A stretch of DNA of 64,000 nucleotides from Coriobacteriia bacterium (GCA_013336165.1 JAAXUF010000009.1:311-64310), one strand, 5' to 3'; counted from the first letter of the stretch, positions 22,935 to 61,401 are shown. The notes: a model not told the origin generated them from the sequence alone. Numbers and translations: made by a program.

Positions 22935-22943
22935 TACATTCGG

Positions 22944-22972
22944 GCCCGGCCGGAAACGGTCGGGCTCTTTTC
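22944..22972 (+). terminator. Rho-independent terminator after ssrA
   Basis: GCCCGGCC / GGTCGGGC stem followed by TCTTTTCT. Confidence 0.6.
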
Positions 22973-23071
22973 TGTTGCGTTTGCTCCTCGTACAACTCCT
23001 GGTCGTGCTGCCCGAAAGTCAGCGTGGGATACAATCCCACAAGGATCCCAACCGGCACGAAAGGCGGTGTC

Positions 23072-23458
23072 ATGAAACGCACGTGGGGATTTGCTCCCGA
23101 GGAATGGGCGCAGGCTCGACGTAGCCTCATGACCCTGCTCGCCGAGACGGCCGTTTGCCACTCCACGGTCACGTACGGTGAGGTTGCGCGACGGGTGTTT
23201 GACGGCCGGGTGAGTGCTCGGTCCTCGGCATTGATGGATCTGCTCGGCGAGGTGGACGAGCTTGAGAACGCCGAACGCGGAATCATGATCGCGTCGCTGG
23301 TCGTCCGGGCCGACACGGGGATGCCGGGCGAGGGCTACTTCACCTTCGCTGCTCAAGAGCTCGGCCGAGAGGCCCTCGATGACCCGCGCGCCTTCTGGTT
23401 CGCTGAGGTCAAGCGCGCGTGGGACGCGTTCTCGGACGGCGCTGGGGGCGCGCTGTGA
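23072..23458 (+). CDS. Hypothetical protein (128 aa; TYGEVA motif suggests an MGMT/Atl-like winged-helix fold)
   Basis: Internal ATG downstream of the tmRNA. The fold assignment rests on VTYGEVARRV only. Confidence 0.45.
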   Translation: MKRTWGFAPEEWAQARRSLMTLLAETAVCHSTVTYGEVARRVFDGRVSARSSALMDLLGEVDELENAERGIMIASLVVRADTGMPGEGYFTFAAQELGREALDDPRAFWFAEVKRAWDAFSDGAGGAL

Positions 23459-24330: not shown

Positions 24331-24901
24331 GGCGCCGACCGGTCACCAACGTGTGCCACTCGAGCGGCCTGTGTACGACAACGTCCGTGAAACCCGCCGC
24401 CGAGAGGATCTCGGCCAACTCGGCACCGGAGAGACGCACCGCCTGCGGGGGACCCTTTGGGGTATCAATGGGAGCCCAATCGACTACGAGAATCTGCCCG
24501 GCGGGTGCTAGGAGCCGCAACGCTTCGCGGTACGTCGCCGGAGGGTTGGCGAGTTCGTGGTGCACGTTGATGGTCACGACGAGGTCGGCCGTACTGTCCG
24601 GAAGAGGGATCGAGGTCTCCTCTGCAAGCAGGGGTACGAAACGCTCGCCGAAGACGCTCACGCGATTCTTGGTCATCCACTCGATCATCACGGGTTCGAT
24701 GTCGACTGCGTAGACTGTCGCTTGCGGCGCCATCTCGGCGAATCTGGCGGCGAACAGGCCTGTGCCCGCTCCGATCTCAACGATGACGCGAGGTGTGGGA
24801 TCGCCAAGAGCATCCCACATGCGCACAGGATCGAGTTGCACGAAGCGGCCCGGATCGTTGAGCTTCTCGAGTTTCGCGAGGTCGAACTTCATGTGTGCCA
24901 T
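24320..24901 (-). CDS. Class I SAM-dependent methyltransferase
   Basis: Motif [14 protein letters not shown], followed by VYAVDIEP. Confidence 0.85.
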
Positions 24902-25009
24902 GGAGGCCTTTCGTGTGTTGGCGATCGCATTCCTGAGTCTATGGTATCGCAAGGGCCCTGTTGTCAGAATCTCGTGCTACCGTGTGCGAACGCGCACCGA
25001 AGGGATCCC

Positions 25010-26877: not shown

Positions 26878-26919
26878 CTACATTGTTGTCGCATGACACT
26901 ACATTCGTGTCGCATACAC
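26878..26919 (+). promoter_or_regulatory. Tandem imperfect 21-bp direct repeat, candidate enhancer (UAS) for the nif promoter
   Basis: CTACATTGTTGTCGCATGACA (26878-26898) is immediately followed by CTACATTCGTGTCGCATACAC (26899-26919). Both lie about 45-90 bp upstream of the -24 element. Confidence 0.45.
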
Positions 26920-26960: not shown

Positions 26961-27899
<939 letters not shown>

Positions 27900-27903
27900 C
27901 ACC

Positions 27904-29361
27904 ATGCCCTCTCCAGACATCAACCAGACCCAGAAGCTGATAGACGAGGTTCTCGAGGCGTATCCCGAGAAGACTCGCAAAGACCGCGCAAAGCATGTGA
28001 AGCCGAACGATCCCAGCGGGGAGTGCTCCAGCTGCGCCGTGAAGTCCAACGTCAAATCGCGGCCGGGGGTTATGACGGTTCGCGGGTGCGCCTACGCCGG
28101 CTCCAAAGGAGTGGTGTGGGGACCAGTCAAGGACATGGTTCACATCAGCCACGGCCCCGTCGGATGCGGGGCATACAGTAACTGGTCTCGCCGCAACTAC
28201 TACAACGGCAGCACTGGGGTCGATGCGTTTGGCACCATGCACTTCACGAGCGACTTCCAGGAGCGCGACATCGTCTACGGAGGTGACAAGAAGCTCGCGG
28301 TCATCATCGACGAAGTCAACACGCTCTTCCCGCTGGCGAAAGGCATCAGCATCCAGTCGGAGTGCCCGGTCGGGCTTATCGGCGACGACATTGAGTCCGT
28401 CGCCAAGGTCAAGACCGTCGAGTGCGGCAAACCGGTCGTTCCGGTGCGCTGCGAGGGCTTCCGCGGCGTGTCTCAGTCGCTCGGTCATCACATCGCCAAT
28501 GACGCGATCCGCGATCACGTATTCGGCAAGGTCGGCACGGACATCGCGACGACGCCGTACGACGTCACGATCATCGGCGACTACAACATCGGCGGAGACG
28601 CATGGGCTAGCCGCCGCATCCTCGAGGACATGGGGCTGCGTGTTATCGCCCAGTGGACGGGCGACGCGACGATCGCCGAGCTTGGCAACGCGCCCAAGGC
28701 CAAGCTCAACCTCGTTCACTGCTACCGGTCGATGAACTACATCTGCCGCTACATGGAAGAGACCTGGGGCACGCCTTGGGAGGAGTACAACTTCTTTGGG
28801 CCGACGAAGATCTACGCGTCGATCCGCGCCATCGCCTCTCACTTCGACGACACCATCAAGGCCAACGCCGAGGCGCTCATCGAGCGCATGAGGCCTGAGA
28901 TGGACGCCATCATCGCCGAGTACATGCCGCGTCTCGAGGGCAAGACCGTGATGCTCTACGTCGGCGGCCTGCGGCCCCGGCACATCATCGGCGCGTACGA
29001 GGACCTCGGTATGGAGATCATCGCCGCCGGCTACGAGTTCGCGCACGCCGACGACTACAAGAAGACGCACCCGAGGCTCAAAGAGGGCGCCGTGATCATG
29101 GACGACGCCACGCCTTACGAACTCGAGGAGTTCACCAAACGCCTGAAGCCCGACCTTGTCGGCAGCGGCGTCAAGGAGAAGTACGCCTACCATAAGATGG
29201 GCGTGCCGTTTCGCCAGATGCACTCGTGGGACTACTCGGGCCCGTACCACGGTTTCGACGGTTTCAAAGTATTCGCCCGCGACATGGACATGACCGTCAA
29301 TAGCCCCGTGTGGGGTCTCGTACGCAAGCCTGCGTGGGCGAGCGAACGCGCTGCAGGTTAG
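27904..29361 (+). CDS. nifD: Nitrogenase MoFe protein alpha chain NifD
   Basis: P-cluster Cys context ([19 protein letters not shown]). FeMo-co ligands in [11 protein letters not shown] and [15 protein letters not shown]. Confidence 0.95.
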
Positions 29362-29371
29362 GAGGTCACGG

Positions 29372-30883
29372 ATGCAAACGACAGATCATAACGATCTCTT
29401 CACACAGCCCGAGTACATCGAGCAGTTCGAGCGCAAGCGCGAGTTCGAAGGGTGTTCGAGCCGCGCCGAGGTCGCCGAGGTCGCCGAGTGGACCAAGTCA
29501 GCCGAGTACCGCGAGGCGAACTTCGCCCGCGAGGCGGTTTCGATCAACCCATGCAAGGCATGTCAGCCTCTCGGCGCCGTGCTCGCTGCGCTGGGCTACG
29601 AGAAGACGCTGCCGTTCGTACAGGGTTCGCAGGGCTGCACCGCCTACTTTCGCTCGCACCTCTCGCGCCATTTCAAGGAGCCGATCGCAGCGGTCTCAAG
29701 CTCGATGACGGAGGACGCGGCGGTCTTCGGCGGCCTCTCGAACATGACCGAGGGCCTCGAGAACGCCTACGCCCTCTACCACCCGGAGATGATTGCGGTC
29801 TCCACCACCTGCATGGCCGAGGTCATCGGTGACGACCTGCGCGCCTACATCAAGCAGTCCAAAGACAAGGGAGCCGTTCCGGATGAGGTGCCGGTGCCGT
29901 TCGCACACACCCCCAGCTTCACCGGCAGCCACCTCAACGGCTACGACGCGATGACCAGAGGAATCCTCTCGGAATTGTCAGGCGGAAGCGCCGCCGAGAA
30001 GAACGAAACGATCAACATCATCCCCGGCTTCGATGGCTACGCAGGTAACTTGCGTGAGTATCGGCACCTGCTCGACTGGATGGGTGTCAAGTACACCATG
30101 CTCGGCGACTATTCGGCTGTCGTTGACGCCCCGGCGTTTGGCGAGTACGAGCTCTACCCAGCCGGTGCCACGACGTTTAACGAGGTGCGCGAGGCCGGCA
30201 ACGCGAAAGCCACTGTCGCGATGCAGCAGTGGTCGACCGTCAAGACCGGCGAGTTCGTGCACGACGAGTGGGGACAGGAATTCGTTGCCGGCCCGATGCC
30301 GATCGGCATCACCGCTACCGACGCGCTGCTTGCCGAGGTCACTCGGCTGACCGGTAGGCAGCTTTCGAAGCGTTTGGAGGTTGAGCGTGGCCGTGCGGTT
30401 GACGCCATGCTCGACTCGCACCCCTACATCTTCGGCAAGCGCGTTGCCCTTGTCGGCGATCCTGACGTGCTTCTCGGCCTCATCAGCTTTCTGCTCAAGG
30501 TGGGGGCCCGGCCGGTTCACATCGTCGCGACCAACGGTGACAAGAAGTTCAAGAAGGCCGCGGATGCGCTTCTGGCATCCTCGCCCTACGGCTCCGACGC
30601 GACCGTGTGGGTCAAGAAGGACATGTGGCACCTGCGCTCACTCATGTTCACCGAGCCGGTCGACCTGCTGCTTGGGCCCTCGAACGCCAAGTTTCTGTGG
30701 CGAGACACGGGCACCACGTTTGTGCGCGTTGGCTTTCCGATCTTTGACCGCCATCACCTCCACAAGAGGCCGATCGTCGGGTACAACGGCGCGATCAACC
30801 TGCTCGCCGACATCGTCAACACGCTGCTGGACGAGCTCGACCGCAAGGCGATGGATACTCCGTCGTTTGATCTGATCCGGTAG
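29372..30883 (+). CDS. nifK: Nitrogenase MoFe protein beta chain NifK
   Basis: INPCKACQPLGA, GSQGCTAYFRSH and TTCMAEVIGDD motifs. Immediately follows nifD. Confidence 0.95.
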   Translation: MQTTDHNDLFTQPEYIEQFERKREFEGCSSRAEVAEVAEWTKSAEYREANFAREAVSINPCKACQPLGAVLAALGYEKTLPFVQGSQGCTAYFRSHLSRHFKEPIAAVSSSMTEDAAVFGGLSNMTEGLENAYALYHPEMIAVSTTCMAEVIGDDLRAYIKQSKDKGAVPDEVPVPFAHTPSFTGSHLNGYDAMTRGILSELSGGSAAEKNETINIIPGFDGYAGNLREYRHLLDWMGVKYTMLGDYSAVVDAPAFGEYELYPAGATTFNEVREAGNAKATVAMQQWSTVKTGEFVHDEWGQEFVAGPMPIGITATDALLAEVTRLTGRQLSKRLEVERGRAVDAMLDSHPYIFGKRVALVGDPDVLLGLISFLLKVGARPVHIVATNGDKKFKKAADALLASSPYGSDATVWVKKDMWHLRSLMFTEPVDLLLGPSNAKFLWRDTGTTFVRVGFPIFDRHHLHKRPIVGYNGAINLLADIVNTLLDELDRKAMDTPSFDLIR

Positions 30884-30893
30884 GAGCGGACCC

Positions 30894-33542
30894 ATGTCAG
30901 TCTCACTGGATAAGCTTCTGGAGTCCGGCTGTCAGTCAGAGGCCCAGCACAAGGTGTGCCGCTCCCGCGGAGGGGAGTCGTGCGCGTTCGACGGTGCCGC
31001 GATTGTGCTCATGCCGATCGCAGACGCGGCGCATGTCATCCACGGCCCCATATCGTGCGCCGGCAACGCGTGGGAAGGCCGCGGCGTTCACTCGACTGCC
31101 GGCGACTTTCACCTGCGTGGATTCACGACCGATGTCTCCGAGATGGATATCGTCTACGGTGCCGAGAAGAAGCTTGCCGAGACGGTCCGCGAGGTCGTGC
31201 GGCGCGAACAACCAAAGGCGGTCTTCGTCTACTCGACGTGCGTGACCGGACTCACTGGCGAAGACATCGACGGAGTCTGCGGATCACTTTCGGTCGAACT
31301 CGCGCTTTCTGTGGTTCCGGTGAATGCGCCGGGGTTTGTGGGTCCGAAGAACCTCGGCAATCGGATTGCCGGTGAAGCGCTGCTTGAGCACGTCATCGGA
31401 ACGGCCGAGCCGACGGTGACCACACCCACCGATATCGTAATCATCGGTGAGTACAACGTGGGTGGTGACCTCGATCTCATCGAGCCGCTTCTGGATGAGT
31501 GCGGGATTCGGGTTCTGTCACGAATCACCGGCAACGCAACCTTCGAGGAAGTGCGTCATGCACACCGCGCCAGACTGTCGGTGCTCGTGTGCAGCCGTGC
31601 GCTCATCAATGTGGCGGTAGGCCTGCAGCGCGGCTGGGCAGTTCCATACCTGGAAGTGTCCTTCTTCGGGGCGACCGAGATTGTGCGCTCACTTCGATCG
31701 ATTGCAGAGGCGTTGGAGCTTGTGTCGCCAGAGGCCGTCGGTGTGCGCCAGCGCGTCGAAGAGGTCATCGCACGGCGGCAAGAAGAGCTCGATGAGCGTC
31801 TGGCGCCCTATGTCGGCGCCCTCAAAGGCAAGCGGGCGATCCTGTACTCCGGCGGCGTGAAGAGCTGGTCGATGGCGTCCGCACTCACCGATTTGGGCAT
31901 CGAGATTCTTGCAGTCGGCACCAAGAAGTCCTCGGCTGAAGACGAAGAGAAAGTGAAGCAGGTCTTAGGAAGCGGCGTTCGACTGATCGAGAACATCTCG
32001 CCGGCCATCATCCGCAAGATCATGGCCGAGGAGCGAGGCGATCTGTTGGTCGCCGGCGGGCGCAACCGCTATCTCGCCGCAAAGGAAGGCTGGCCTTTCG
32101 TCGACGTGAACCAGGAGCGGGAGACCGCCTACGCCGGCTTCGAAGGACTCGTGAACCTTGCTCGGGATCTTTCGGCGAGTGTTGCCTTCTACGACCGGCA
32201 GAGACGTGACCGCTTCTGTTCTTTGCCTGCGGCTCAGACGCCGGTTCGCACGGAGGAGCGCGTCGGGTCCATCGATCCGCTCAAAAACGCTCCGACTTTG
32301 GGCGCAGCCTTGGCGCTGCAGGGCGTGGATCGGTCAATCCCCGTGTTGCATGCGGCGCAGGGGTGCACCTTCCTGGGCAAGGTCCTGGCTATCCGGCACT
32401 TCAACGAGCCGATTGCTCTTTCCACCACGAAGCTCTTCACTGAGGATGTCGTGCTAGGTAGCGACGAGGGCGTCAGCACAGTCGTCCGCTCGCTTGTGGA
32501 AGCCTCGTCTCGGCCGGATGTCATTGCGCTTGTCAGCGGCGGCCTGGCCGAGGTACGGGGCGACGATGTCGCGACACTGGCGCGCCGACTCGATCACCAG
32601 TTCGAACCTGCGATCATTGCGATTCGGGCTCCCGACTATCACGGTAGCCTCGAAGACGGCTATCTTGCCGCAGTCCGTTCCCTCCTGCGTCTTGCCGAGG
32701 ACGCCGCATTCGAGGCACCAGCGGCCTCAAGACAAGTCACGGTGCTCGCCGGTTCGCATCTTTCCCCGGCTGACGTGTGTGAACTCAAAGACATGGTGGA
32801 GTCGTTCGGCCTGCGGCCGATAATGCTCCCGGACCTGTCAGCCCTTGACGGCAGTCGGGAGGGTTTCTCGGCGCTGGCCGCGGGTGGAGTCATGCTGGCC
32901 GACATCTGCCGGCTTTCGGCGTCTGCGCACACGCTGGTGTTGGGCGCGTCGCTCGAACCAGCCGCTCACGATCTTGCAGAGCGTTTCGGCACTCCGCTCT
33001 CGGTGTTTGATGCGGTGTGCGGTGTCGAAGCGACCGATTCACTTCTCGCGGCGCTGGTCCTGCTCTCAGGCAGGTCGGTTGCAGGGCGCTTTGAGCGTGA
33101 TCGGCGCATCGCCATCGACGCGATGCGCGACGCACACCTGCGCATCTCAGGCAGGCGAGTCTGCCTCGCGCTGGAATCCGATCACGCCATGTCCATGTCT
33201 GCGATTTTCGACGAGATGGCGGCCCGTCCCGTATGCGCCATCATCCCGACGCGAGCCGTCGTCGCTTCCCGGATTCTCGCCGATGAGGTCGTGGTCGGCG
33301 ATCTGGCCAGCGTACCCGGGGGAATCGATCTGCTGGTATCGAACTCCCACGCCCATCGCACGGCCGCTTCCGCAGGAGCAGTTCTCTTTGAGACCGGGTT
33401 CCCACAGTTCGAGACCCATGGCGCGTCACGCCAGCTTTCCGTTGGATACCGGGGCGCAGCAAGGGTCGTCGATGCCGTGGCGAATCTGCTTTCGCCCAAT
33501 CGAACAAACCAGAATGTCATCGGAGAAAGGGGATCCAATTGA
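30894..33542 (+). CDS. nifEN: Fused NifE-NifN FeMo-cofactor scaffold protein
   Basis: One 882-aa frame. The N-terminal half is NifE-like (CAFDGA..VL.PI.DA.H..HGPI.C, YSTCVTGLTGEDI). From about residue 470 it is NifN-like (IDPLKNAPTLGAALALQGVDRSIPVLHAAQGCT). Confidence 0.85.
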   Translation: MSVSLDKLLESGCQSEAQHKVCRSRGGESCAFDGAAIVLMPIADAAHVIHGPISCAGNAWEGRGVHSTAGDFHLRGFTTDVSEMDIVYGAEKKLAETVREVVRREQPKAVFVYSTCVTGLTGEDIDGVCGSLSVELALSVVPVNAPGFVGPKNLGNRIAGEALLEHVIGTAEPTVTTPTDIVIIGEYNVGGDLDLIEPLLDECGIRVLSRITGNATFEEVRHAHRARLSVLVCSRALINVAVGLQRGWAVPYLEVSFFGATEIVRSLRSIAEALELVSPEAVGVRQRVEEVIARRQEELDERLAPYVGALKGKRAILYSGGVKSWSMASALTDLGIEILAVGTKKSSAEDEEKVKQVLGSGVRLIENISPAIIRKIMAEERGDLLVAGGRNRYLAAKEGWPFVDVNQERETAYAGFEGLVNLARDLSASVAFYDRQRRDRFCSLPAAQTPVRTEERVGSIDPLKNAPTLGAALALQGVDRSIPVLHAAQGCTFLGKVLAIRHFNEPIALSTTKLFTEDVVLGSDEGVSTVVRSLVEASSRPDVIALVSGGLAEVRGDDVATLARRLDHQFEPAIIAIRAPDYHGSLEDGYLAAVRSLLRLAEDAAFEAPAASRQVTVLAGSHLSPADVCELKDMVESFGLRPIMLPDLSALDGSREGFSALAAGGVMLADICRLSASAHTLVLGASLEPAAHDLAERFGTPLSVFDAVCGVEATDSLLAALVLLSGRSVAGRFERDRRIAIDAMRDAHLRISGRRVCLALESDHAMSMSAIFDEMAARPVCAIIPTRAVVASRILADEVVVGDLASVPGGIDLLVSNSHAHRTAASAGAVLFETGFPQFETHGASRQLSVGYRGAARVVDAVANLLSPNRTNQNVIGERGSN

Positions 33543-33979
33543 AAGTCGCATTCGCCAGCACAAGAGGCACGACGGTAGACGAGCACTTCGGCCGAGCCAG
33601 CGCCTTCTCTATCTACGACATCACGCCGAACGCCGCTGTCTTCGTGGAGTTGCGCAGAGTTGCAGAGGGAGACGTGGACGTCGCGGTCGTAGAGTCGCGG
33701 GGCATGGGTGAGCTGCACGAAAGTGCGATTGCCAATAAGGTCGATCAACTCGCTGACTGCAAGATCGTCTACTTCACCGAGATAGGCGGCCCCTCGGCCG
33801 CGAAGCTGATTCGGCGTGGCATCATGCCGCTCAAAGTGGAGCGATCGAGTTCGATTGAGCTGCTCACTGAGAATCTCATTGAGACCATGCGTTACCGTCC
33901 TGCGCCGTGGATGCGCAAGATCCTAGCATCAGATGCCCAGCGCGAAGCAAAAACCGCCAGCCAGACCGGAGAGAGGTAA
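33539..33979 (+). CDS. nifX: NifX (FeMo-co carrier, NifX/NafY-like)
   Basis: (M)KVAFASTRGTTVDEHFGRASAFSIYDI is the NifX N-terminus. TTG start overlaps the nifEN stop. Confidence 0.8.
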   Translation: MKVAFASTRGTTVDEHFGRASAFSIYDITPNAAVFVELRRVAEGDVDVAVVESRGMGELHESAIANKVDQLADCKIVYFTEIGGPSAAKLIRRGIMPLKVERSSSIELLTENLIETMRYRPAPWMRKILASDAQREAKTASQTGER

Positions 33980-33984
33980 CCGAC

Positions 33985-34302
33985 ATGAAGATGGTGCGAG
34001 CGTTCGTTAGGCCCGAGAAGGAACAGGAGATCGTTCAGGCTCTCGAGGGCGCCGGGTTTGGCTCTCTTACGAAGATGCCGGTCTTTGGCCGCGGCAAGCA
34101 AAAGGGGCTGCAGGTCGGCCCGATCTACTACGACGAGCTTCCCAAGACTCTGCTCATGATGGTTGTCGATGACGCCGACACCGCGGCCGTCATCGGCGTC
34201 ATCGAAGACAAGGCACGGACTGGGTTCATTGGCGACGGCAAGATCTTCGTCTCGCCGGTCGAGGAGGCCTACACGATCAGGACCGGGGAGGCAGGGCTGT
34301 GA
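33985..34302 (+). CDS. nifI1: PII-family nitrogenase regulator NifI1
   Basis: 105 aa. MKMVRAFVRPEK...T-loop GRGKQKG...GDGKIFVSPVEEAYTIRTGE. Position in the nif operon. Confidence 0.85.
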   Translation: MKMVRAFVRPEKEQEIVQALEGAGFGSLTKMPVFGRGKQKGLQVGPIYYDELPKTLLMMVVDDADTAAVIGVIEDKARTGFIGDGKIFVSPVEEAYTIRTGEAGL

Positions 34303-34724
34303 GAGAGATCACCGCGATCATTCGCCGAGACAAGCTCCCGGCGACCAAGAGTGCACTCGCCGAGATCGGCTACCCCTCTCTGACCATCCAAAGCGTCGAG
34401 GGCCGCGGCAAGCAGCGCGGAAACGTCGCCTGTCAGTTGCAGGATATGGATGAGGACGGTGCAACCTGCAACTCACTCCATGTGAAGCTCAGGCCCACGC
34501 CATCGGCCTACGCACTCGAGCACACCTTGCCCAAGGTCGCTCTCTACGTACCCAAGCGGTTGTTGACTGTCGTCGTTCCCGATGAGGCCGCCCACGAGGT
34601 TGTCTCGGCGATCATCGCCGTGAACCGGACCGGCCAGTTTGGCGACGGCAAAATCTTCGTCTCCGTGATCGACGAGGCAGTGCGCATCCGGACTCTTGAA
34701 GTCGGCGCCGAGGCGGTGGCGTGA
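34299..34724 (+). CDS. nifI2: PII-family nitrogenase regulator NifI2 (extended T-loop)
   Basis: 141 aa. MREITAIIRRDKL...GRGKQRG, then a ~35-aa insertion, then GDGKIFVSVIDEAVRIRT. Overlaps the nifI1 stop. Confidence 0.8.
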   Translation: MREITAIIRRDKLPATKSALAEIGYPSLTIQSVEGRGKQRGNVACQLQDMDEDGATCNSLHVKLRPTPSAYALEHTLPKVALYVPKRLLTVVVPDEAAHEVVSAIIAVNRTGQFGDGKIFVSVIDEAVRIRTLEVGAEAVA

Positions 34725-34999
34725 TGTCGTCTACCACGCGGGACGGACGGTCGTGGCGGCCGGGCTACATCGATTCGGTGGACTACGACGCGTGCATCGG
34801 CTGTGGCCGTTGTTACAAGGTATGCGGGCAGGGTGTGCTTGCGCCGATCGCCAAGCCCTACGAGGCCGACGACGATGACGAGTACGGTGACGACTTCGGC
34901 AACACGGTCATGAGCATCGCCGATCCGGGCGCGTGCATCGGATGTGGGGCGTGCGCGCGAGTTTGCGCTAAGAAAGCACAGGTACACGTTGCAGCATAG
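34721..34999 (+). CDS. nif-specific 2x[4Fe-4S] ferredoxin III (FdxB-like)
   Basis: CIGCGRCYKVC...acidic DDDDEYGDD linker...CIGCGACARVC, with the W.P.YI..VD..AC N-terminal pattern. Confidence 0.8.
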   Translation: MMSSTTRDGRSWRPGYIDSVDYDACIGCGRCYKVCGQGVLAPIAKPYEADDDDEYGDDFGNTVMSIADPGACIGCGACARVCAKKAQVHVAA

Positions 35000-35050
35000 G
35001 TGTCGAGAAGCAACACACATGTCAAGCGCCACCGGACGGAGGGCATAGAG

Positions 35051-35971
35051 ATGACCGGAGGCATCCCGCACGTAGCTTGCAGCGCTCGGGCAAATGAGCG
35101 GCTGGTAATGGCGAATCATCCGTGCTTTTCGGCGGATGTGCATCGGCGACTGGGTCGGATTCACCTTCCCGTTGCGCCGGAGTGCAACATCCAGTGCGGT
35201 TACTGCATACGCAAATTCGACTGCGTGAACGAGTCTCGCCCCGGAGTGGCGAGCACGATTCTCTCACCGGAGGAGGCGCTCGATCGTATGAGGGCGGTTG
35301 TAGAGCGTGGCGGGGGAGCGATCGCGGCAGTGGGCATCGCGGGACCGGGCGATCCGCTGGCCAACGACGCGACGTTCGAGACGCTTGACCTTGTGCGAGC
35401 GGAATACCCTGAGGCGATTCTGTGCGTGTCGACCAACGGTCTCGCACTGCCCGACCGCCTGCGCGATCTTGTCGCCGCGGGTGTCCGCTCGCTCACTATT
35501 ACCATCAACGCGGTCATGCCCGAGACTGCGGAGATGGTCTACTCCTGGGTCACAGACCCGGCCGGGAAACGGCTGCGAGGTCGGGAAGCTGCTGAGGAGC
35601 TGCTTGACCGGCAGTGGGATGGCCTGCGGCGTGCGGTCGCGGCAGGCCTTGTCGTGAAGGTGAACTCCGTGCTGATTCCGGGAGTCAACGAGGCAGAGCT
35701 TCCGGCGCTCGCGCTGCTAGCTGCCGAGTCGGGCGCGCGTTTGGGCAACATCCTGCCGCTCATTCCGCAGGCGCGCTTCCGTGACGTGATGCCGCCGTCT
35801 CCCTCTCAGATCCATGCTGCGCGCGCGGCGTGCGGCGAATACCTCGCACAAATGACGCACTGCAACCAATGCCGAGCGGATGCGTGCGGGCTCATTGGCC
35901 AAGACCGTGACATGGAAGCCGAAACGCTTATGTCACGGCTGTCGGATGACTATCTCGAAGCCGTGTCGTGA
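35051..35971 (+). CDS. nifB: Radical-SAM FeMo-co biosynthesis protein NifB (SAM domain only, no NifX-like C-terminal domain)
   Basis: HPCFS...GRIHLPVAPECNIQCGYCIRKFDCVNESRPGV. RBS GGAGGG. Confidence 0.9.
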   Translation: MTGGIPHVACSARANERLVMANHPCFSADVHRRLGRIHLPVAPECNIQCGYCIRKFDCVNESRPGVASTILSPEEALDRMRAVVERGGGAIAAVGIAGPGDPLANDATFETLDLVRAEYPEAILCVSTNGLALPDRLRDLVAAGVRSLTITINAVMPETAEMVYSWVTDPAGKRLRGREAAEELLDRQWDGLRRAVAAGLVVKVNSVLIPGVNEAELPALALLAAESGARLGNILPLIPQARFRDVMPPSPSQIHAARAACGEYLAQMTHCNQCRADACGLIGQDRDMEAETLMSRLSDDYLEAVS

Positions 35972-38004: not shown

Positions 38005-39537
38005 CTAGGCTCCTTCCAGGTCGTACTTGCGCATCTTGTACGCCAATTGGCGTGGTGTGATTCCCAGCTCACGGGCCGCACGAGCCTGTACGTAGGTATG
38101 TCGGCGCAGTGCGATGAGAATGCGACGGCGTTCGAGGGCTTCTATCTCCTCGTTTAACGAAAGCCCATCTCCGCCCTCGTCGGCCATGTCATGCAGCAGC
38201 AGGTGCTTTGGCAGATCGCGAGGGTGGATTGTGTCCGTCTCGGCTAGGACCACCAGACGGTGCAGTGTGTTCTCGAGTTCGCGGATGTTGCCCGGCCATC
38301 CATATTCTAAGAGGATGTGCATGGTCTCGCGTGTGAGCTCAATGGTGCTTCCGGTCGCTTGGGAGAAGCGGTTCAGGAAATGCTCGATGAGCAGCGGGAG
38401 GTCTTCTCGGCGATCACGCAGTGCAGGCAGGAAGATCGGGACGACGTTCAGGCGCCAGTACAGGTCCTCGCGAAACTCTCCGCTGCGCATCATCTGCTCG
38501 AGGTTGCGGTTCGTGGCGCTGACGATCCGGGCATCGCTTGTGAGAGTCTTTGTGCCGCCGAGCCGCTCGAATGTCCTTTCCTGCAGCACGCGCAGGAGCT
38601 TGGCCTGCAGAGAGGGAGGGACGTCGCCTATCTCGTCGAGGAAGATGGTGCCGCCTCGTGCGAGTTCGAAGCGGCCCTGTTTGCTTGAGATAGCGCCGGT
38701 GAAAGCGCCCTTCTCGTAGCCGAACAGCTCCGCCTCCAGCAGGTTTTCCGGGAGAGCAGCGCAGTTGATCGCCACAAACGGACCCTTGGGCTTGAGTCCC
38801 TGGTAGTGAAGCGCGTGGGCGATCAGTTCCTTACCAGTGCCGCTTTCGCCACGCAGAAGCACCGTGGCCTGTGAGCGCGCCACCTTCGACGCGATTCTGA
38901 ACACCTCCTGCATGGCATCGGAGTCGCCGATGATGTTGGGCAGCGAGTACCGCCCGCGCAACTCACCTCGGAGCCGGTCGCGATCCTCCACTTCGTGCTG
39001 GTAGATCCAGTACAGCCGAACCGCATGCGCAATGATCGAGGCCACAATCTCGAGCACACGGATGTTTTCTTCGAGGGACACATCTTCATCGGCGAATACG
39101 CGATCAGCCGAGAGCACCCCCAATACGCTCCCGCGAAGCACAATCGGAACAGAGATGAAGCCGATGTCGGCCCGCTCCGGTCTGGAGCCGGTGCGGTTCA
39201 GAAAGAGGGGCTCCTGGCCGACGTTGGGGATCGCCATCGTCTTGCCGCTCGACGCGACCTGGCCCACCACACCCTCGCCGGTGCGGTAGACCCCACGCGC
39301 GATTTCGGCACGCGTGAGTCCGTGAGCCGCCGCAATCCTGAGTTCGCGGGTCTCGGGATGGATGAGCGCCACGGTTGCGCGGGAAAGACCCAGGCCTTGA
39401 GAGAGGACTCGCATGGATCGCCTGAGATTGCGATCGATGTCGAAGCTCGACGCCATGGCTTGGCTGACGTCGAGCAGCACCGCGAGTTCAACGGTTCCCA
39501 CTGTGGCGTTGGACGAAGGATCTGCTACATTCATCAT
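38005..39537 (-). CDS. nifA: sigma54-dependent transcriptional activator NifA (GAF - AAA+ - HTH)
   Basis: GAF domain ending in IPNVGQEPLFLNRTG. GESGTGKE Walker A. ELFGYEKGAFTGA. C-terminal HTH ARELGITPRQLAYKMRKY. Start taken at MMNVADP because the longer track ORF runs into the csp promoter. Confidence 0.85.
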   Translation of the reverse strand: MMNVADPSSNATVGTVELAVLLDVSQAMASSFDIDRNLRRSMRVLSQGLGLSRATVALIHPETRELRIAAAHGLTRAEIARGVYRTGEGVVGQVASSGKTMAIPNVGQEPLFLNRTGSRPERADIGFISVPIVLRGSVLGVLSADRVFADEDVSLEENIRVLEIVASIIAHAVRLYWIYQHEVEDRDRLRGELRGRYSLPNIIGDSDAMQEVFRIASKVARSQATVLLRGESGTGKELIAHALHYQGLKPKGPFVAINCAALPENLLEAELFGYEKGAFTGAISSKQGRFELARGGTIFLDEIGDVPPSLQAKLLRVLQERTFERLGGTKTLTSDARIVSATNRNLEQMMRSGEFREDLYWRLNVVPIFLPALRDRREDLPLLIEHFLNRFSQATGSTIELTRETMHILLEYGWPGNIRELENTLHRLVVLAETDTIHPRDLPKHLLLHDMADEGGDGLSLNEEIEALERRRILIALRRHTYVQARAARELGITPRQLAYKMRKYDLEGA

Positions 39538-39605
39538 TGGCTTAGTGAAACACGGCTCTGTTTCGGGACCATGAAATATAGGTTGCGCGTCATCGGCGAG
39601 TCGTG

Positions 39606-39614
39606 TGCTATACT
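39606..39614 (+). promoter_or_regulatory. Candidate extended -10 promoter element for csp
   Basis: TGC-TATACT. This would give a 5' UTR of about 105 nt, as is usual for cold-shock genes. No well-spaced -35 element. Confidence 0.3.
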
Positions 39615-39724
39615 CTCCGCAGGATCCGAAGGGGATCCAGTTTCGCGGCGTGGCGTTTCGCGCAGATTGCGGAATGTTGCGTCGCTTTGTTTTTTGCCCT
39701 GCGGGGCAGGAGAGTGAGTTTAGA

Positions 39725-39928
39725 ATGGCTGAAGGTACAGTTAAGTGGTTCAACGCTGACAAGGGCTATGGCTTCATCTCGCGTACGGATGGCGACGATC
39801 TGTTCGTCCATTTTTCCGAGATCCAGACCAGCGGCTTCAAGACCCTCGAAGAGGGCCAGGCCGTTTCGTTCGAGGTCACCACTGGCCAGAACGGCAAGCT
39901 GCAGGCCACCAAGGTCTACGCCAAGTAG
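39725..39928 (+). CDS. cspA: Cold-shock protein (CspA family)
   Basis: [15 protein letters not shown]....[12 protein letters not shown]1/RNP2 motifs. 67 aa. Confidence 0.95.
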
Positions 39929-39986: not shown

Positions 39987-40045
39987 CGCGTTGTTGGGCA
40001 TATACCGTGAGACCCAATGACGAGACCATGGGAGGGGCTTCAAAC

Positions 40046-40414
40046 ATGGAAGGCTACATCGAAGTGCCGCTGGCGGCACCCTTGGTCGAAGGTACGATGA
40101 CATCCGTAGAGGTCGAAGACCACGAGCTGCTTGTAGCGCTGGTCGGGGGGCGCTACTACATCTCCGACGCTCGCTGCCCGCATCTCCACGGCCATCTGGC
40201 AAAGGGCGTCTTGGACGGCACGGTTGTGACATGCCCCCTCCATCACTCGCAGTTCGATCTTTCGGACGGCCATGTAGTGCGCTGGACCGACTGGACGGGT
40301 GCCGTGCTCGGCATCTCTGAACTGGTCAGGCACCCTCGGCCTCTGCGCACCTATGAGGTCGCGGTTGAAGCCGGTCGTGTGCTCGTCGGTCCCGAGAAGC
40401 CGCCGGTCCCGTGA
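40046..40414 (+). CDS. Rieske [2Fe-2S] domain protein
   Basis: CPHLHGHL...CPLHHSQF ligand motifs. RBS GGAGGGG. Confidence 0.85.
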   Translation: MEGYIEVPLAAPLVEGTMTSVEVEDHELLVALVGGRYYISDARCPHLHGHLAKGVLDGTVVTCPLHHSQFDLSDGHVVRWTDWTGAVLGISELVRHPRPLRTYEVAVEAGRVLVGPEKPPVP

Positions 40415-40442: not shown

Positions 40443-41348
40443 ATGCAGTCTCAACCCATTGGTATCTTCGATTCCGGTCTCGGCGGTCTGACGGTCGCGC
40501 GCGAAATCGCGCGCGCGCTGCCGCACGAGTCGCTCGTCTATCTTGGTGACACTGCGCGATACCCGTATGGCCCGCGCGACTTGGCCGAGGTGCGGCGGTT
40601 TGTGCTTGAGATTGGCGCGTGGCTGGAACGCCGCCAAGTCAAGATGCTGGTCATCGCATGCAACACCGCAACCGCTGCCGGGCTCGAATTGGCTCAACGG
40701 TCGTTCTCGGTGCCTGTGATCGGAGTCATCGAGCCGGGTGCGCGGGCGGCGGTGCAGGCTACCAGGAACCGCCGAGTCGGAGTGATCGGCACGGTCGGCA
40801 CCATTGAGTCGGGCGCGTACAGCCGCGCGGTGCGTGCGCTCGACGCCGGTGTGACCGTCTTCAGTGTGGCGGCTCCGCGTTTTGTCGACATCGTCGAAGA
40901 AGGCTTGCGGCTCGATGTGGGCGCTGTCGAGGGGCTGATGGCGGACTCGGCCGACGTGTTCGTCCGTCCGGCGTTCCACGCGATTGCTCGTCAGTACCTC
41001 GATCCGTTGAAACGCACCGGGATCGACACCCTCGCGCTCGGCTGCACGCATTTTCCGCTGCTTTCGGCGGCGATCGGGTCCGTGGTAGGACCGCGCGTAC
41101 GCATCATCTCGTCGGCCGAGGAGACGGCACGCGAGGTGGCCGAGACGCTCCTGCGCCGTGACCAGCTGACGCTGGCCGATGGCCGTCCGCCTCGGCACCT
41201 GTTTGCCACCACAGGCGACGTGCAGGAGTTCGAGCAGCTGGGCTCGCGGGTGTTCGGCGCGCCAATCGGCGAGGTCGAGCATGTCGCGCTCGAGCAGCTG
41301 GCTGCGGGAGCGGCCGAGGGAACGGCGAAAGAGGGCTCATGCGACTGA
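40443..41348 (+). CDS. murI: Glutamate racemase MurI
   Basis: IGIFDSGLGGLTV, LVIACNTA and LGCTHFPLL. Confidence 0.95.
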   Translation: MQSQPIGIFDSGLGGLTVAREIARALPHESLVYLGDTARYPYGPRDLAEVRRFVLEIGAWLERRQVKMLVIACNTATAAGLELAQRSFSVPVIGVIEPGARAAVQATRNRRVGVIGTVGTIESGAYSRAVRALDAGVTVFSVAAPRFVDIVEEGLRLDVGAVEGLMADSADVFVRPAFHAIARQYLDPLKRTGIDTLALGCTHFPLLSAAIGSVVGPRVRIISSAEETAREVAETLLRRDQLTLADGRPPRHLFATTGDVQEFEQLGSRVFGAPIGEVEHVALEQLAAGAAEGTAKEGSCD

Positions 41349-42109
41349 CGGTACTCGGCTCGGCGGCGAGCTACGCGGGACCCGGTCAGGCGTGCACGGG
41401 GCACTATCTCGAGGCGGGTGGGGCTCGGGTGCTGCTGGACTGCGGCAACGGAGTGCTTTCGAACCTCGGGAAGGTGACCGATCCCCTCGCGCTCGATGCA
41501 GTCTTTGTCACGCACGCTCACCCTGACCATTTCGCTGATCTCTACGCACTGAACTCCCTCCTCCGTTATGCCCCCGAGGGTCCACGGCCTCCGCTCGCGC
41601 TCTACATGCCCGAGGGACTGTGGGAGGCGCTCTGCGGCCCCGTCAACACGCGCATCGCTACCGATCTGGCTCTCGCGTTTGTGCCGGTGCTGCTTGTCGA
41701 TGGCGAGAGCGTGGCTGTCGGCGATCTGACGATCACACCGCGCCGAGTCGACCACATCGAGCCTACGTATGCGCTGGTGGCCGAGGCCGACGGTGCCAGG
41801 CTGGTCTACACCGCTGACACGGCGCCCGGCCCCGCTGCGTTCGCCGTATCGCTGGGCGCCGATCTGCTGCTCGCCGAGGCGACGTTTCCGGAGGCCTATG
41901 CCGGGTTTGGGCCGCACATGACGGCATCGCAGGCGGGGGCGCTCGCTCGAGACGCAGGCGTGAGAGCGCTCGTGCTTGCCCACGTGTGGCCGACAAACGA
42001 CCGCGCGGCGATGGTGACTTATGCTGCCGCGGTATTCGACGGCCCGGTGGTCGTCGCGAACGAACTGGATGTGTTCGAGATCTCGCCTGTGGGCGGAAAG
42101 GACGACTAG
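41339..42109 (+). CDS. MBL-fold metallo-hydrolase
   Basis: FVTHAHPDH motif. Occupies the same position as the MBL gene between murI and rph in mycobacteria. Confidence 0.85.
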   Translation: MRLTVLGSAASYAGPGQACTGHYLEAGGARVLLDCGNGVLSNLGKVTDPLALDAVFVTHAHPDHFADLYALNSLLRYAPEGPRPPLALYMPEGLWEALCGPVNTRIATDLALAFVPVLLVDGESVAVGDLTITPRRVDHIEPTYALVAEADGARLVYTADTAPGPAAFAVSLGADLLLAEATFPEAYAGFGPHMTASQAGALARDAGVRALVLAHVWPTNDRAAMVTYAAAVFDGPVVVANELDVFEISPVGGKDD

Positions 42110-42856
42110 ATGACGAACCGACTTGAAGGCCGCGCGCCCGATGCGCTGCGCCCTGTGCGGATCACGCGCCGCTACCTGAAGCACGCGATGGGGAGCTGCA
42201 TCTTCGAGCTCGGCGACACGCGCGTGCTGTGCGTGGCGTCGATCCAGGAGGGCGTCTCGTCGTGGAGGCGCGGCAGCGGGCTTGGATGGGTGACGGCGGA
42301 GTACGCGATGCTGCCGGCGGCCACGCACACCCGCTCACGCCGCGAGAGCTCCTCCGGCGGCCCCAAAGGCCGCACGCAGGAGATCCAGCGCCTGGTGGGC
42401 CGCTCGCTGCGCTCCGCAGTCGACATGGGCGCTCTCGGTGGCGAAGTGACGGTGACCGTGGACTGTGACGTCCTGCAGGCCGACGGCGGTACTCGAACCG
42501 CGTCGATCACCGGCGCATACATCGCGCTTCACGACGCGTTCTCGGAGTGGATGGCGGCTGGCAAGATCGCGCGCCTGCCGTTTCTGGAGCAGATCGCCGC
42601 CACAAGTGTGGGCATGGTCGACGGCACGCTCCTGCTCGACCTCGAGTATGCTGAGGACTCCATTGCCGAGGTCGACATGAACGTCGTCATGGACGGCCGC
42701 GGGCGCTTCATCGAGGTGCAAGGCACCGGCGAGCAGACGCCGTTCGACCGCAAGCGCCTCGACGCGATGCTCGATCTGGCCACCGGAGGGATCGGGCGGC
42801 TGCTGGAGATCCAGCAGCACGTTCTTTCGGAGGACCTGGATGTCTACGAATCCTGA
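42110..42856 (+). CDS. rph: Ribonuclease PH
   Basis: GR....LRP........K.A.GS......T.VLC.AS, ...GWVTAEY.MLP..T..R and DCDVLQADGGTRTASITGA. Confidence 0.95.
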   Translation: MTNRLEGRAPDALRPVRITRRYLKHAMGSCIFELGDTRVLCVASIQEGVSSWRRGSGLGWVTAEYAMLPAATHTRSRRESSSGGPKGRTQEIQRLVGRSLRSAVDMGALGGEVTVTVDCDVLQADGGTRTASITGAYIALHDAFSEWMAAGKIARLPFLEQIAATSVGMVDGTLLLDLEYAEDSIAEVDMNVVMDGRGRFIEVQGTGEQTPFDRKRLDAMLDLATGGIGRLLEIQQHVLSEDLDVYES

Positions 42857-43460
42857 CGGCTCCACGCTAACGGTCGTCGTCGCCACATCGAATCGCGGCA
42901 AGCTTACCGAGATCCGCTCGGCACTGAACTTCGAGGGCTGGCGCTTCGTCTCCGCCGACGAGCTCTCCGATGAGTGGCCAAGTCCCGACGAGACCGGCAC
43001 CACCTTTGAGGACAACGCGCGCATCAAGGCCCGGGCGGCGTTCGAGCGCTTCGGCATGCCGGCGCTCGCAGACGATTCCGGTCTCGAAGTCGACGCGCTC
43101 GGCGGCGAGCCCGGCGTCTACTCAAGCCGCTATGCCGGCGAGTGCGCCGCCGATGCCAAGAACAACGCGCGCCTGCTCCTCGCGCTCAAGGAGGTTCCCG
43201 CAGCCGAGAGGAGCGCTCGCTTCCGGTGCACGATGGTGCTCGTGGAGGACGACGGATCAGAGGTCGTCGCGAACGGAACCTGCGAGGGGAAGATTGGCTT
43301 TCAGCTACGTGGGGACGGCGGTTTTGGCTACGACCCGCTCTTTCTGCCCGACGCCATCCCCGGTCACACCATGGCCGAGCTTTCACTCGCCGAGAAGAGC
43401 GCTATCAGTCACCGCGGGGCGGCGTTGCGCGATCTGCGCGCCAAGCTCAAGCGCGGCTGA
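42840..43460 (+). CDS. rdgB: Non-canonical purine NTP pyrophosphatase RdgB (ITPase)
   Basis: VVATSN.GK..E, DDSGLEVDALGG.PGVYS.RYAG, GFGYDP.F and SHRG.A. Confidence 0.95.
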   Translation: MSTNPDGSTLTVVVATSNRGKLTEIRSALNFEGWRFVSADELSDEWPSPDETGTTFEDNARIKARAAFERFGMPALADDSGLEVDALGGEPGVYSSRYAGECAADAKNNARLLLALKEVPAAERSARFRCTMVLVEDDGSEVVANGTCEGKIGFQLRGDGGFGYDPLFLPDAIPGHTMAELSLAEKSAISHRGAALRDLRAKLKRG

Positions 43461-44479: not shown

Positions 44480-46579
44480 CTACGGCAGTGTGCGTACCTT
44501 CGGCTCGCGCGCCCACTGGCGAGTCTTTGCTGCCTTGATGAAAGCTTTGGGGTCGGCGGCGTCGATGACGCCTGCGTCGGCAGTGACGCCGGCGGTCTTG
44601 AGGAGTGCCTTGGCACCTTCGTCGGCGGCGATGGCCTTGAGGTGGCCGAATGCATCCCGCACGAAGTCAACCGCGGCACCTTCCTTGGCAAGCTGCTTCG
44701 CGCTTACGTCGGACAGGATCACCGCCACCGCGTCGAAGATCACCGACGGCGTCCCGGCGAGTTGGTTCTCGATAACCTCGGACTTGCCGCCTCCGAGCTT
44801 GACCTCGCCGATCTTGGGCGCCACCACCTTGACGACGGCCCCGGCAGCGTGCGCCGCCTTCCGGATCGCGTCAATCGCCGCGCTGTCGGATCCGTTGGCA
44901 ATGAGAATGCCCACTGAACGACCCTTGAGCGTGTCCTTCATCTTGCTAATGAGGCCCAACGGGGGCGATTTCGCCAAGTCTTGAATGTGGGCTGCCGCTT
45001 GAGGAGCTGCCGGAAGCGTAGCCATATTCAAGCCGGTGGCGACGCGTTTGGCCAGTGAGGCGTCAATGTTGCGCAGGTGTCCGACAATCGCTTCTCGCAC
45101 GTGTGGCGTCTGCACCTTGGACAGTTCAAACACGTACGCCGATACGATGTGAGCCTGCTCCGCGGGGCTCTGGCTGCGGTAGAACTGGCGGGGTTGGCTG
45201 TAGTGATCGGCGAAGCTTGCCGGCCGAATGCGGCGCTTGAGCCCGTGATCGATGGAGACCGCGGCGCTAGCGAATCCGTGGGGGGACTCGAGGGGCCGAT
45301 CTGGCTCGAGTGACTGCGGCTCGTAGTTGGTTCGGCCGCTTGGCACCGCCATCTGCATGTGCCCGTCGCGCTGGTTGTTGGTCACGGGGCACTTGGGTGA
45401 GTTGATCGGGATCTGGTGGAAGTTCACTCCGCCAAGACGTGAGAGCTGCGTGTCGGTATAGGAGAAAAGCCGACCCTGCAGGAGCGGGTCGTTGCTGAAG
45501 TCCATGCCCGGCACGATGTTGGCGGGGCAGAAGGCGACCTGCTCGGTTTCGGCGAAGAAGTTGTCGGGCCAGCGGTTGAGCACCATGCGCCCGACGGGCG
45601 TGAGCGGCACGAGTTCCTCCGGGATCAGTTTCGTGGGGTCGAGATGGTCGAAGGGGAAGCCGTCCGCCTCTTCCGGCGTGAACAGCTGGACGAAAAGCTC
45701 CCACTCGGGAAACGCGCCAGCTTGAATGCTGTCAAACATGTCGCGGCGGTGGAAGTCCGGATCCGCGCCGGCGAGTTTGACTGCCTCATCCCAGAGGGTG
45801 GACTGCAGCCCGAGCTTGGGGCGCCAATGGAACTTAACGAACGTGCTGTAGCCCGAACGGTCGATGAACCGGAAGCTGTGGACGCCGAATCCCTCGATCA
45901 TGCGCAAGGAGCGGGGAATCGTGCGGTCCGACATCGCCCAAATGACCGCGTGCATCGACTCAGGCGTGAGCGAGACGAAATCCCAGAAGGTGTCGTGTGC
46001 ACTTGCGGCCTGCGGGAACCCACGATCCGGCTCCATCTTCACGGCGTGGACGAAGTCAGGGAACTTGATGGCATCCTGGATGAAGAAGACCGGAACGTTG
46101 TTGCCCACGAGGTCCAGGTTGCCTTCCTCTGTGTAGAACTTAACGGCGAAGCCACGTATGTCGCGGGGAGTGTCGACTGATCCCGATCCGCCAGCGACGG
46201 TTGAGAAGCGAGCAAAGACCGGGACTTTGACGCCGACCTGGGTGAAGATCTTCGCGGTCGTGACCTTGCTCAGCGAGTTCGTAAGCTCGAAGAAGCCGTG
46301 CACTCCCGTGCCACGCGCGTGTACGATGCGCTCTGGGATGCGCTCGTGGTCGAAGTGCATGATCTTCTCTCGGAGGACGAAGTCCTCGAGCAATGTCGGC
46401 CCATGATCTCCGGCGTGCAGCGAGTTCTGGTCGTCCGACACTTGGACGCCTTGGTTTGTCGTTAGCGGAGGGTGTTCTCCTCCGGCGTGTTGGTGCAACT
46501 CACCGGCGTTACCGGTTTCGCGGGCACCTATCCCTGCCGCGTGCTTGCCCTTGGCGGGCACCTTCTTCTGGGCACTCAT
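44480..46579 (-). CDS. katE: Large-subunit monofunctional catalase (HPII type)
   Basis: [35 protein letters not shown], and a ~150-aa C-terminal DJ-1/flavodoxin-like extension. Start at the second ATG after AGGAGG. Confidence 0.95.
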
Positions 46580-46772
46580 CATGACCTCCTGCGTGTTGCA
46601 CTCTCCGCCGAGCCAAGCGACCCTGCCTGTCTTACCTACCCATGAGAGATCTGCGAGAATCGCGACATAGCGAGCGGCATCATTCTCCCCGCCGGTCGCG
46701 CAGTCAGGTGGCGTGACGTGCGGCGGACGTGACCGGGACATCGGTTTGCAGCTGATCCCGTGCCGATCAAAC

Positions 46773-46801
46773 AAGAAGGGTACCCGTGGGGTGCCCTTCT
46801 T
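46773..46801 (-). terminator. Hairpin terminator between the secreted-protein gene and katE
   Basis: AAGAAGGGTACCC / GGGTGCCCTTCTT stem. On the minus strand it is followed by GTTTGAT. Confidence 0.4.

Positions 46802-61325: not shown

Positions 61326-61401
<76 letters not shown>

Follow-up and report, generated by a model that had tools for sequence, protein, structure and literature searches.

Sedentary chromosomal integrons in which the integrase gene, intI, is co-oriented with the cassettes reportedly occur in Treponema denticola, in Chlorobi and in some other groups. In Proteobacteria such as Klebsiella and Azotobacter, the nif genes are under NifA and sigma-54 (RpoN) control. Frankia is not known to have rpoN or NifA. 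In Mycobacterium tuberculosis, the Rv1338-Rv1341 block presumably comprises murI, the gene for the metallo-beta-lactamase (MBL)-fold cyclic AMP phosphodiesterase Rv1339, rphA and an rdgB-like gene. Here we analyzed a stretch of 64,000 nucleotides (nt) (GCA_013336165.1 JAAXUF010000009.1:311-64310; C26:311-64310 in our contig numbering), referred to as the window, from the metagenome-assembled genome (MAG) of a Coriobacteriia bacterium. The window holds a murI-MBL-rph-rdgB block, an integron cassette array, and a nif operon with a NifA-like activator gene. A sequence-only reading of it had assigned an actinobacterial host from the core genes, and had regarded the integron array and the sigma-54/NifA regulon as unexpected there, candidates either for cross-phylum acquisition or for an early-branching anaerobic group to which the usual rules do not apply. 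We favor, with a probability of about 0.85, an ordinary chromosome of an anaerobic order of Coriobacteriia in which sigma-54 and an integron are lineage-wide and nif is a minority trait, none of them recently acquired.

The distribution of rpoN, intI and nifD was determined as the number of genomes with a match over the curated cut-off in three sets: the order of the window genome (n=146 species genomes, about 24 families by GTDB kinship), other Coriobacteriia (n=175), and a phylum sample (n=401 species). The rpoN gene was found in 139 of the 146 order genomes (about 95%), in 10 of the 175 other Coriobacteriia, all of one family (f3), and in 8 species of the phylum sample (2%). An intI gene was present in 96/146 order genomes and in 24/401 of the phylum sample (6%), the latter belonging to the order and to nine other families; at E <= 1e-40, 80 of the 98 high-quality order genomes gave an intI match. 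The nifD gene occurred in 21/146 order genomes from nine families and in 14/98 high-quality ones, and its six carriers in the phylum sample (1.5%) were the window genome itself, four members of family f29 and one of family f79. Neither intI nor nifD was found among the other-Coriobacteriia members of the phylum sample. Furthermore, the single-contig (closed) order genomes G234, G527 and G502 carry both rpoN and intI, and G527 also carries nif.

The rarity at the phylum level agrees with published surveys, in which sigma-54 was reported absent from Actinobacteria (PMC3162934) and IntegronFinder 2.0, run on complete RefSeq genomes, recovered no complete integron from Actinobacteria (PMC9024848); a review counts Actinobacteriota among the phyla with detected integrons (PMC8618304). 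The supposed unexpectedness of the modules stands for Actinomycetota as a whole and falls for the order itself, where rpoN and intI are routine among close relatives and nif/NifA is present in a part of them. Sigma-54 and the integron are lineage traits of the order, not peculiarities of the window genome, and the suggestion of an anaerobic lineage outside the usual rules was supported. A literature search (integron with Coriobacteriia; Anaerosomatales; nifH with Coriobacteriia) turned up no publication on these traits for members of the order. A mercury-methylation survey mentions in passing nitrogenase genes in 'Actinobacteria' methylators, within a set that includes OPB41 genomes (PMC7438021), and the paper describing Anaerosomatales makes no mention of sigma-54, integrons or nitrogenase (PMC9686372). 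The lineage-level distribution of sigma-54 and integrons in the order appears to be undescribed in the literature searched.

The assembly has 1.99 Mb in 28 contigs, is 99.5% complete with 0.26% contamination, and contains no small-subunit (16S) rRNA gene. GTDB kinship places the genome (G000) in the Coriobacteriia, Actinomycetota, in keeping with the actinobacterial host that had been proposed. The class and phylum were named from genomes G299 and G311, since these share the GTDB class of the window genome and are 93-94% identical to Collinsella aerofaciens over 3 kb of DNA. A placement tree built on two core genes only, rph and rdgB, agreed: the window, its closest named relative L011 and the complete same-order genome G234 joined the Coriobacteriales loci with an SH-like approximate likelihood ratio support (SH-aLRT) of 98, and the enclosing Actinomycetota clade also reached 98. 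The closest RpoN homologues, 76-83% identical, carry the NCBI label '[Coriobacteriia bacterium]'. The host is an uncultured, strictly anaerobic-type actinobacterium of the class Coriobacteriia, and its order is distinct from the Coriobacteriales of the gut. On circumstantial grounds, this order is most likely Anaerosomatales (OPB41), and both type strains of Anaerosomatales seem to belong to it.

The type strains, Anaerosoma tenue and Parvivirga hydrogeniphila, have a Gram-positive wall and small high-GC genomes of 1.8-2.1 Mb, and both are catalase-positive strict anaerobes (PMC9686372). The A. tenue-like genome G421 and the P. hydrogeniphila-like genome G286 belong to the same GTDB order as the window genome; both have rpoN, and G421 also has intI. 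The window genome differs from these two in its family (f1, not f2), in its GC content (61% versus about 67%) and in the presence of nif, which both of them lack. As a side observation, the L011 MAG (CAYXQU010000109.1; also L093) is labelled 'uncultured Eubacteriales bacterium' at NCBI, and its rpoN match is identical to that of the order member G520 in contig number, coordinates and score; the 'Eubacteriales' label is probably wrong.

A search of the rest of the genome, which the sequence-only reading had proposed, recovered both rpoN and intI, on contigs C7 and C22, respectively. RpoN (C7:39495-40847) scored 398 bits against TIGR02395 (cut-off 277), and the Pfam models PF00309, PF04963 and PF04552 cover its three conserved regions. 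Its identity to homologues followed kinship, at 78-81% for its own family and 53-79% for other families. In a database search, the best 120 RpoN matches were all from the same lineage, with no outgroup among them. The rpoN gene stands at the head of a cluster on the minus strand (C7:33817-40871) that further encodes a histidine kinase, a GAFTGA response regulator of the NtrC type, a CopZ-like small protein (heavy-metal-associated) and a protein of 860 residues with GAF and PP2C-phosphatase domains. The first three genes of this cluster, rpoN, the kinase and the enhancer-binding protein, are kept together in G421 and G286. Exactly two GAFTGA activators are encoded in the genome: the NtrC-type regulator beside rpoN and the NifA-like protein of the window. 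The order either kept this rpoN-histidine kinase-NtrC-type activator operon or gained it very early, and about 95% of its species have it.

Outside the order, the ten family f3 genomes among the other Coriobacteriia (e.g. G377, G601, G634 and G659; 2.2-4.0 Mb) were seen to have a full rpoN. The f3 RpoN is about 33% identical to that of the order and has no adjacent kinase-regulator pair, and G659 has two copies. The f3 rpoN probably has a history separate from that of the order.

The integrase was encoded on the minus strand of the 7-kb contig C22 (4693-5634). It scored 483 bits against TIGR02249 (cut-off 265) with positions 2-315 aligned, i.e. over its full length; none of 14 control genomes reached that cut-off. 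Two strict attC hairpins (C22:3117-3201 and 3890-3973) follow intI on its own strand, 0.7-1.6 kb to the 3' side, and share their sequence families with the attC sites of the window array (600-16100), which is the following feature:

1-16100, plus strand: integron cassette array, about 18 attC with co-oriented cassettes (repeat families ending in GTTRRRY, hairpin folds).

The attC sites are canonical, with R'' RYYYAAC, R' GTTRRRY and hairpins of about 85-100 nt; elsewhere in the genome the strict detector gave about 1 site per 100 kb. Contig C16 (32 kb, GC 0.574) is almost wholly cassette array with 12-15 attC, and C4 is also part of the proposed split array. Spread over C22, C4, C16 and C26, the array may well be longer than 50 kb in total (about 2.8% of the genome). 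End overlaps between C22, C26 and other contigs were sought and none was found. In the relatives, intI followed by same-strand attC was seen at five of six intI loci, including those of G234, G527 and G502, and also in G421 with at least nine attC. Families f13 and f65, outside the class, show this layout too, with attC arrays adjacent to intI. The order holds a chromosomal integron with intI co-oriented with the cassettes and the array 3' of intI, in two thirds to four fifths of its species; the window array probably belongs to this system, and in these lineages integrons are persistent.

Compared with known sedentary chromosomal integrons, that of the order is similar in its full-length IntI with the integron-specific segment, its canonical attC and the position of the array, which follows the 3' end of intI in the same orientation. 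In the window lineage, the array is likewise long and consists mostly of cassettes of unknown function and toxin-antitoxin cassettes. The difference lies in the host, a Gram-positive-type actinobacterial order. In the cassette part next to intI, two small adjacent open reading frames (ORFs) on the minus strand (C22:215-844), one of them XRE/HigA-like, look like a toxin-antitoxin cassette of the kind common in chromosomal integrons.

The nif region of the window comprises the following features:

26878-26914, plus strand: two imperfect palindrome copies, consensus (G)CGACA-N4-TGTCG(C), a candidate activator binding site (from conservation).
26965-26980, plus strand: putative sigma-54 -24/-12 promoter TGGCAC-N5-TTGC, TGGCACGGCGATTGC, the best match in the window, 62 nt 5' of the nifH ATG (27042).
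27042-35971, plus strand: nif operon of nifH, nifD, nifK, a nifEN fusion, two PII-like genes and nifB (NCBIfam).
38005-39762, minus strand, convergent with nif: NifA-like sigma-54 enhancer-binding protein with GAF, AAA+ (GAFTGA) and helix-turn-helix (HTH) domains (TIGR01817).

NifH (468 bits), NifD (802) and NifK (752) all scored over their cut-offs; NifEN reached 898 bits, and NifB, at 316, fell slightly under its cut-off. The 485-residue NifD scored 753-820 bits against MoFe alpha chains of 477-505 residues, which we take to be of the Azotobacter/Klebsiella type. Against the longer 1MIO/4WES-type chains (518-534 residues), which we take to be of the clostridial long-insertion type, it scored 385 bits. 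The Mo-nitrogenase is thereby predicted, from sequence, to be of the Azotobacter/Klebsiella (group I) type, whose NifD is without the long clostridial insertion. About one in seven species of the order holds this nifHDK-EN-PII-PII-B operon.

The top match of the NifA-like protein in the PDB was a 'Nif-specific regulatory protein' (9qq6, 388 bits), the next activator scoring 286. The gene order nifH-D-K-EN-PII-PII-B and the convergent NifA-like gene recur in G527, G475 and G474, where the activator orthologues, about 67-78% identical, also adjoin nif. The same -24/-12 element precedes nifH in G527 (f99) and in G475 and G474 (both f1). A ribosome-binding site, GAAGGAGG, is associated with the promoter TGGCACGGCGATTGC ahead of the nifH ATG. 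Moreover, the TGTCGC half of the palindrome stands exactly 78 nt 5' of TGGCAC in all four order genomes examined (the window, L113, L118 and L123; two families). The smpB neighborhood is 5' of nif in the window, and in G475 SmpB is encoded 3.3 kb 5' of nifH. The nif operon is most likely under NifA-like and sigma-54 control: the convergent activator would bind the palindrome about 78 nt 5' of the -24 element and would then open the complex that the sigma-54 holoenzyme forms at TGGCAC-N5-TTGC, an element 62 nt 5' of nifH.

This arrangement shares with the NifA/sigma-54 system of Klebsiella and Azotobacter the GAF-AAA+(GAFTGA)-HTH activator beside nif, the TGGCAC-N5-TTGC element before nifH, the sequence type of NifD and an upstream palindrome at a typical enhancer distance. 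Unlike the proteobacterial system, the window has the CGACA-N4-TGTCG palindrome in place of TGT-N10-ACA; it also has two PII (NifI-like) genes inside the operon, a fused nifE-nifN and a short NifB, and its genome encodes two enhancer-binding proteins in total. The nif clusters of Frankia, the textbook case of nitrogen fixation in Actinomycetota and a genus without a genome in the 401-genome sample, belong to the same phylum and also specify a Mo-nitrogenase; the order uses rpoN and a NifA-like activator, which Frankia is not known to do.

The other actinobacterial nif families differ from the order in this respect. No sigma-54 promoter was found 5' of nifH in f29 (two genomes examined) or f79, no full rpoN was found in the sampled genomes of either family, and in those of f29 no rpoN was detected. 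The f29 genomes (L115 = G149 and L117 = G093; small genomes) keep the nifHDK-EN-PII-PII order with NifD 72-73% identical to that of the window and AT-rich upstream regions, so that the same nif operon is predicted to be under different control in f29 and in the order. The f79 genome (L116 = G384) has the order nifH-PII-PII-D-K-EN-B. Since its NifD is only 40% identical to that of the window and its gene order is different, there are several nitrogenase lineages in uncultured Actinomycetota.

The core genes from which the actinobacterial host had been proposed start with the murI block:

40443-41348, plus strand: murI, glutamate racemase (TIGR00067, 229 bits, cut-off 147; NCBIfam).
41339-42109, plus strand: MBL-fold protein, a candidate Rv1339-like atypical class-II cyclic-nucleotide phosphodiesterase (NF041851).
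42110-42856, plus strand: rph, RNase PH (TIGR01966, 338 bits, cut-off 142).
42840-43460, plus strand: rdgB, non-canonical purine nucleoside triphosphate pyrophosphatase (TIGR00042, 181 bits, cut-off 145).

The NCBIfam scan confirmed the four genes in the order and orientation that had been claimed. Since they share the plus strand and overlap by 10 nt and 17 nt, with one direct abutment, they look like a single operon. The top NCBIfam model for the MBL protein, NF041851 'cyclic nucleotide-degrading phosphodiesterase', gave 160 bits, far under its cut-off of 400; Pfam assigned Lactamase_B_2 and Apyc1 on an identical Logan contig. The protein has THAHPDH at residue 58, in agreement with [T/S]HXHXDH, the signature that defined Rv1339 and its relatives (PMC9293780). 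It thus shares the motif of the Rv1339 class but falls well short of the curated phosphodiesterase cut-off, and it is 31-43% identical to the MBL proteins of actinobacteria outside the order. Partly on the basis of the Rv1339 paper, we take the block to be equivalent to Rv1338-Rv1341 of M. tuberculosis, the two presumably being alike in the four families, their order and their orientation.

The synteny of the block was compared in 80 loci with flanks, taken from Rph relatives with one genome per species. The contiguous four-gene block was present in many Actinomycetes and Acidimicrobiia (e.g. Spirillospora, Sinomonas and Cellulosimicrobium). Within the order, G234 and L011 have the full block; MurI is 71-76% identical to those of these two relatives, and the MurI, MBL, Rph and RdgB identities to L011 are 76, 58, 72 and 69%. 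Collinsella and its kin, the nearest class relatives, retained murI-rph-rdgB and, unlike the Rv1338-Rv1341 block, have lost the MBL gene. Only rph-rdgB was seen in Geobacter, in further 'delta' MAGs and in one MAG labelled Planctomycetia, a Sericytochromatia MAG had rph by itself, and Heliorestis has murI 4 kb upstream of rph without the MBL gene. Because the full block is found in actinobacteria and rph-rdgB alone, or no MBL gene, elsewhere, the four genes together make a fair actinobacterial marker. The same cannot be said of rph-rdgB by itself, of tig-clpP or of a high GC content. The operon of murI, the MBL gene, rph and rdgB belongs to the inherited housekeeping genes of actinobacteria.

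Several results weigh against the favored reading. IntI does not track species: the same-family IntI is 71.5% identical to that of the window genome, those of other families are 68-74%, and an IntI from another class (f65) nests within the diversity of the order. The three genes 5' of intI on C22 were not found beside intI in the loci of 11 relatives. Exact -24/-12 matches were not enriched genome-wide, with 6 found and about 5 expected by shuffling. The activator fell 14 bits short, a marginal deficit, of the curated NifA cut-off (TIGR01817, 514.5 versus 528.85 bits), and in all four order genomes the region 5' of the promoter was without a canonical TGT-N10-ACA site; on account of both, it is best named NifA-like. 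Other actinobacterial RpoN proteins (f35, 38-39%; f3, 33%) are no closer to that of the order than the RpoN of Geobacter (37%). Finally, the class name was inferred from Collinsella DNA identity, and the order name from matching assembly statistics alone.

Since IntI ignores species relationships and the upstream genes differ, integrons may move among these lineages rather than being strictly inherited. An IntI tree was tried for telling strict vertical inheritance from horizontal transfer; it was star-like, mixed classes, and resolved neither.

The explanation that survives best beside the favored one is that sigma-54 and integrons were already present in the ancestor of Actinomycetota, or of some broader group of monoderms, and were lost in the well-studied crown lineages while surviving in deep anaerobic branches, the order among them. 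Full-scoring rpoN in the phylum family f35 and the class family f3, weaker rpoN-like matches in f27, intI over the cut-off in at least nine further phylum families with adjacent attC arrays in f13 and f65, and the nif gene order and NifD identity shared with f29 are all in its favor. However, the distance of the f35 and f3 RpoN from that of the order, no smaller than the distance of Geobacter, and the class-mixing IntI tree speak against it, and we regard so deep an origin as unlikely. Because f35 and f3 RpoN are no closer than that of Geobacter, an ancient transfer into the ancestor of the order is as likely as retention from an actinobacterial ancestor. Within the favored reading, the modules may have been acquired long ago, when the order arose or earlier.

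A recent gain of the integron array and nif/NifA/sigma-54 by the window genome or its immediate ancestor, from another phylum such as Desulfobacterota-like or proteobacterial anaerobes, was one of the two possibilities raised from the sequence. It would suit the rarity of all three traits in the phylum sample, the pairing of an Azotobacter/Klebsiella-type NifD with NifA, and the lower GC of C16. The codon-usage comparison that had been called for was performed: the synonymous codon use of nifHDK, nifEN, nifB, nifA, rpoN and intI matched the host, with z-scores of -0.4 to +2.2 against the long ORFs of the genome. The cassette ORFs, at about -0.9 on average, were mildly atypical, which would also suit a recent gain and is as expected for cassettes. 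The order-wide occurrence of rpoN and intI, with nifD in 21 of the 146 genomes, largely refutes a recent gain; moreover, the nif order, the convergent activator gene and the promoter are kept across families, and RpoN identity tracks kinship. Since rpoN and intI are common across the order, the nif promoter is conserved and the codon use is host-like, recent transfer is not supported, and we consider it very improbable.

That the MAG mixes contigs, or that C26 is chimeric, with DNA of a Gram-negative anaerobe joined to that of an actinobacterium, is hardly credible: 28 contigs without a 16S gene, intI on a separate small contig and attC on several others would allow it, but the estimated contamination is low, C22 and the window share their attC families, the SmpB-to-nif neighborhood recurs in G475, closed order genomes hold the same modules, and the cassette array, nif, the NifA-like gene and the actinobacterial core genes all stand on one 66-kb contig of uniform GC.

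The remaining features of the window are as follows:

18665-26830, plus strand: core block between the array and nif, with RNase R, M42 peptidase, SmpB, transfer-messenger RNA (tmRNA) and RecQ (Pfam, tmRNA detection).
40007-40414, plus strand: Rieske [2Fe-2S] ferredoxin-like gene immediately 5' of murI (NCBIfam Rieske-type ferredoxin; Pfam Rieske on the Logan contig).
44480-46774, minus strand: catalase HPII (NF008422, 946 bits).
61326-62016, plus strand: tRNA-Gly, Arg, His, Lys and Leu cluster (ARAGORN, Rfam).
61975-63573, plus strand: tig, trigger factor (TIGR00115, 346 bits, residues 44-453 aligned; the true start is 3' of tRNA-Leu).
63600-63998, plus strand: clpP, cut by the window end (NF001368, 232 bits; TIGR00493, 224 bits; both under cut-off because the window end truncates the gene).

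The tRNA genes (five in number) ahead of tig-clpP, the long Lys-rich trigger-factor tail (about 70 residues, basic, rich in Lys, Ala, Thr and Pro) and the high GC content (0.57-0.66 along the window, 0.56-0.63 per contig, about 61% overall) were all found as described; as evidence for an actinobacterial host, the tig-clpP arrangement and the high GC proved not diagnostic. The tmRNA (22584-22934), with the tag peptide GTNKYALAA, adjoins smpB. Both Anaerosomatales isolates are strict anaerobes, yet catalase-positive (PMC9686372), and the HPII-type large-subunit catalase of the window is consistent with this despite the strictly anaerobic lineage.

All components of the window are of known kinds, and the surprise shifts from the window genome to its lineage. 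The often-repeated statements that Actinobacteria are without sigma-54 (PMC3162934) and without complete integrons (PMC9024848) drew on cultured or complete genomes. A bolder view, which we find doubtful, is that this supposed lack is a sampling artefact of cultured crown groups, both systems being old and stable in several deep anaerobic lineages and perhaps dating from the ancestor of the phylum. If true, the order would be the first clade of Gram-positives in which chromosomal integrons are native and nearly universal, and a cultured member (Anaerosoma tenue-like, with intI and at least nine attC) would allow attC recombination tests in a monoderm. For annotation, such modules in these MAGs should not be flagged as contamination. 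The order adds potential subsurface nitrogen fixers; its nitrogenase operon is common to another actinobacterial family (f29) but is tied to NifA and sigma-54 in the order, which makes it a natural case of regulatory rewiring. With a whole order of Gram-positive-type Coriobacteriia carrying both sigma-54 and integrons, the question of why integrons avoid Gram-positives becomes experimentally approachable through the cultured strains.

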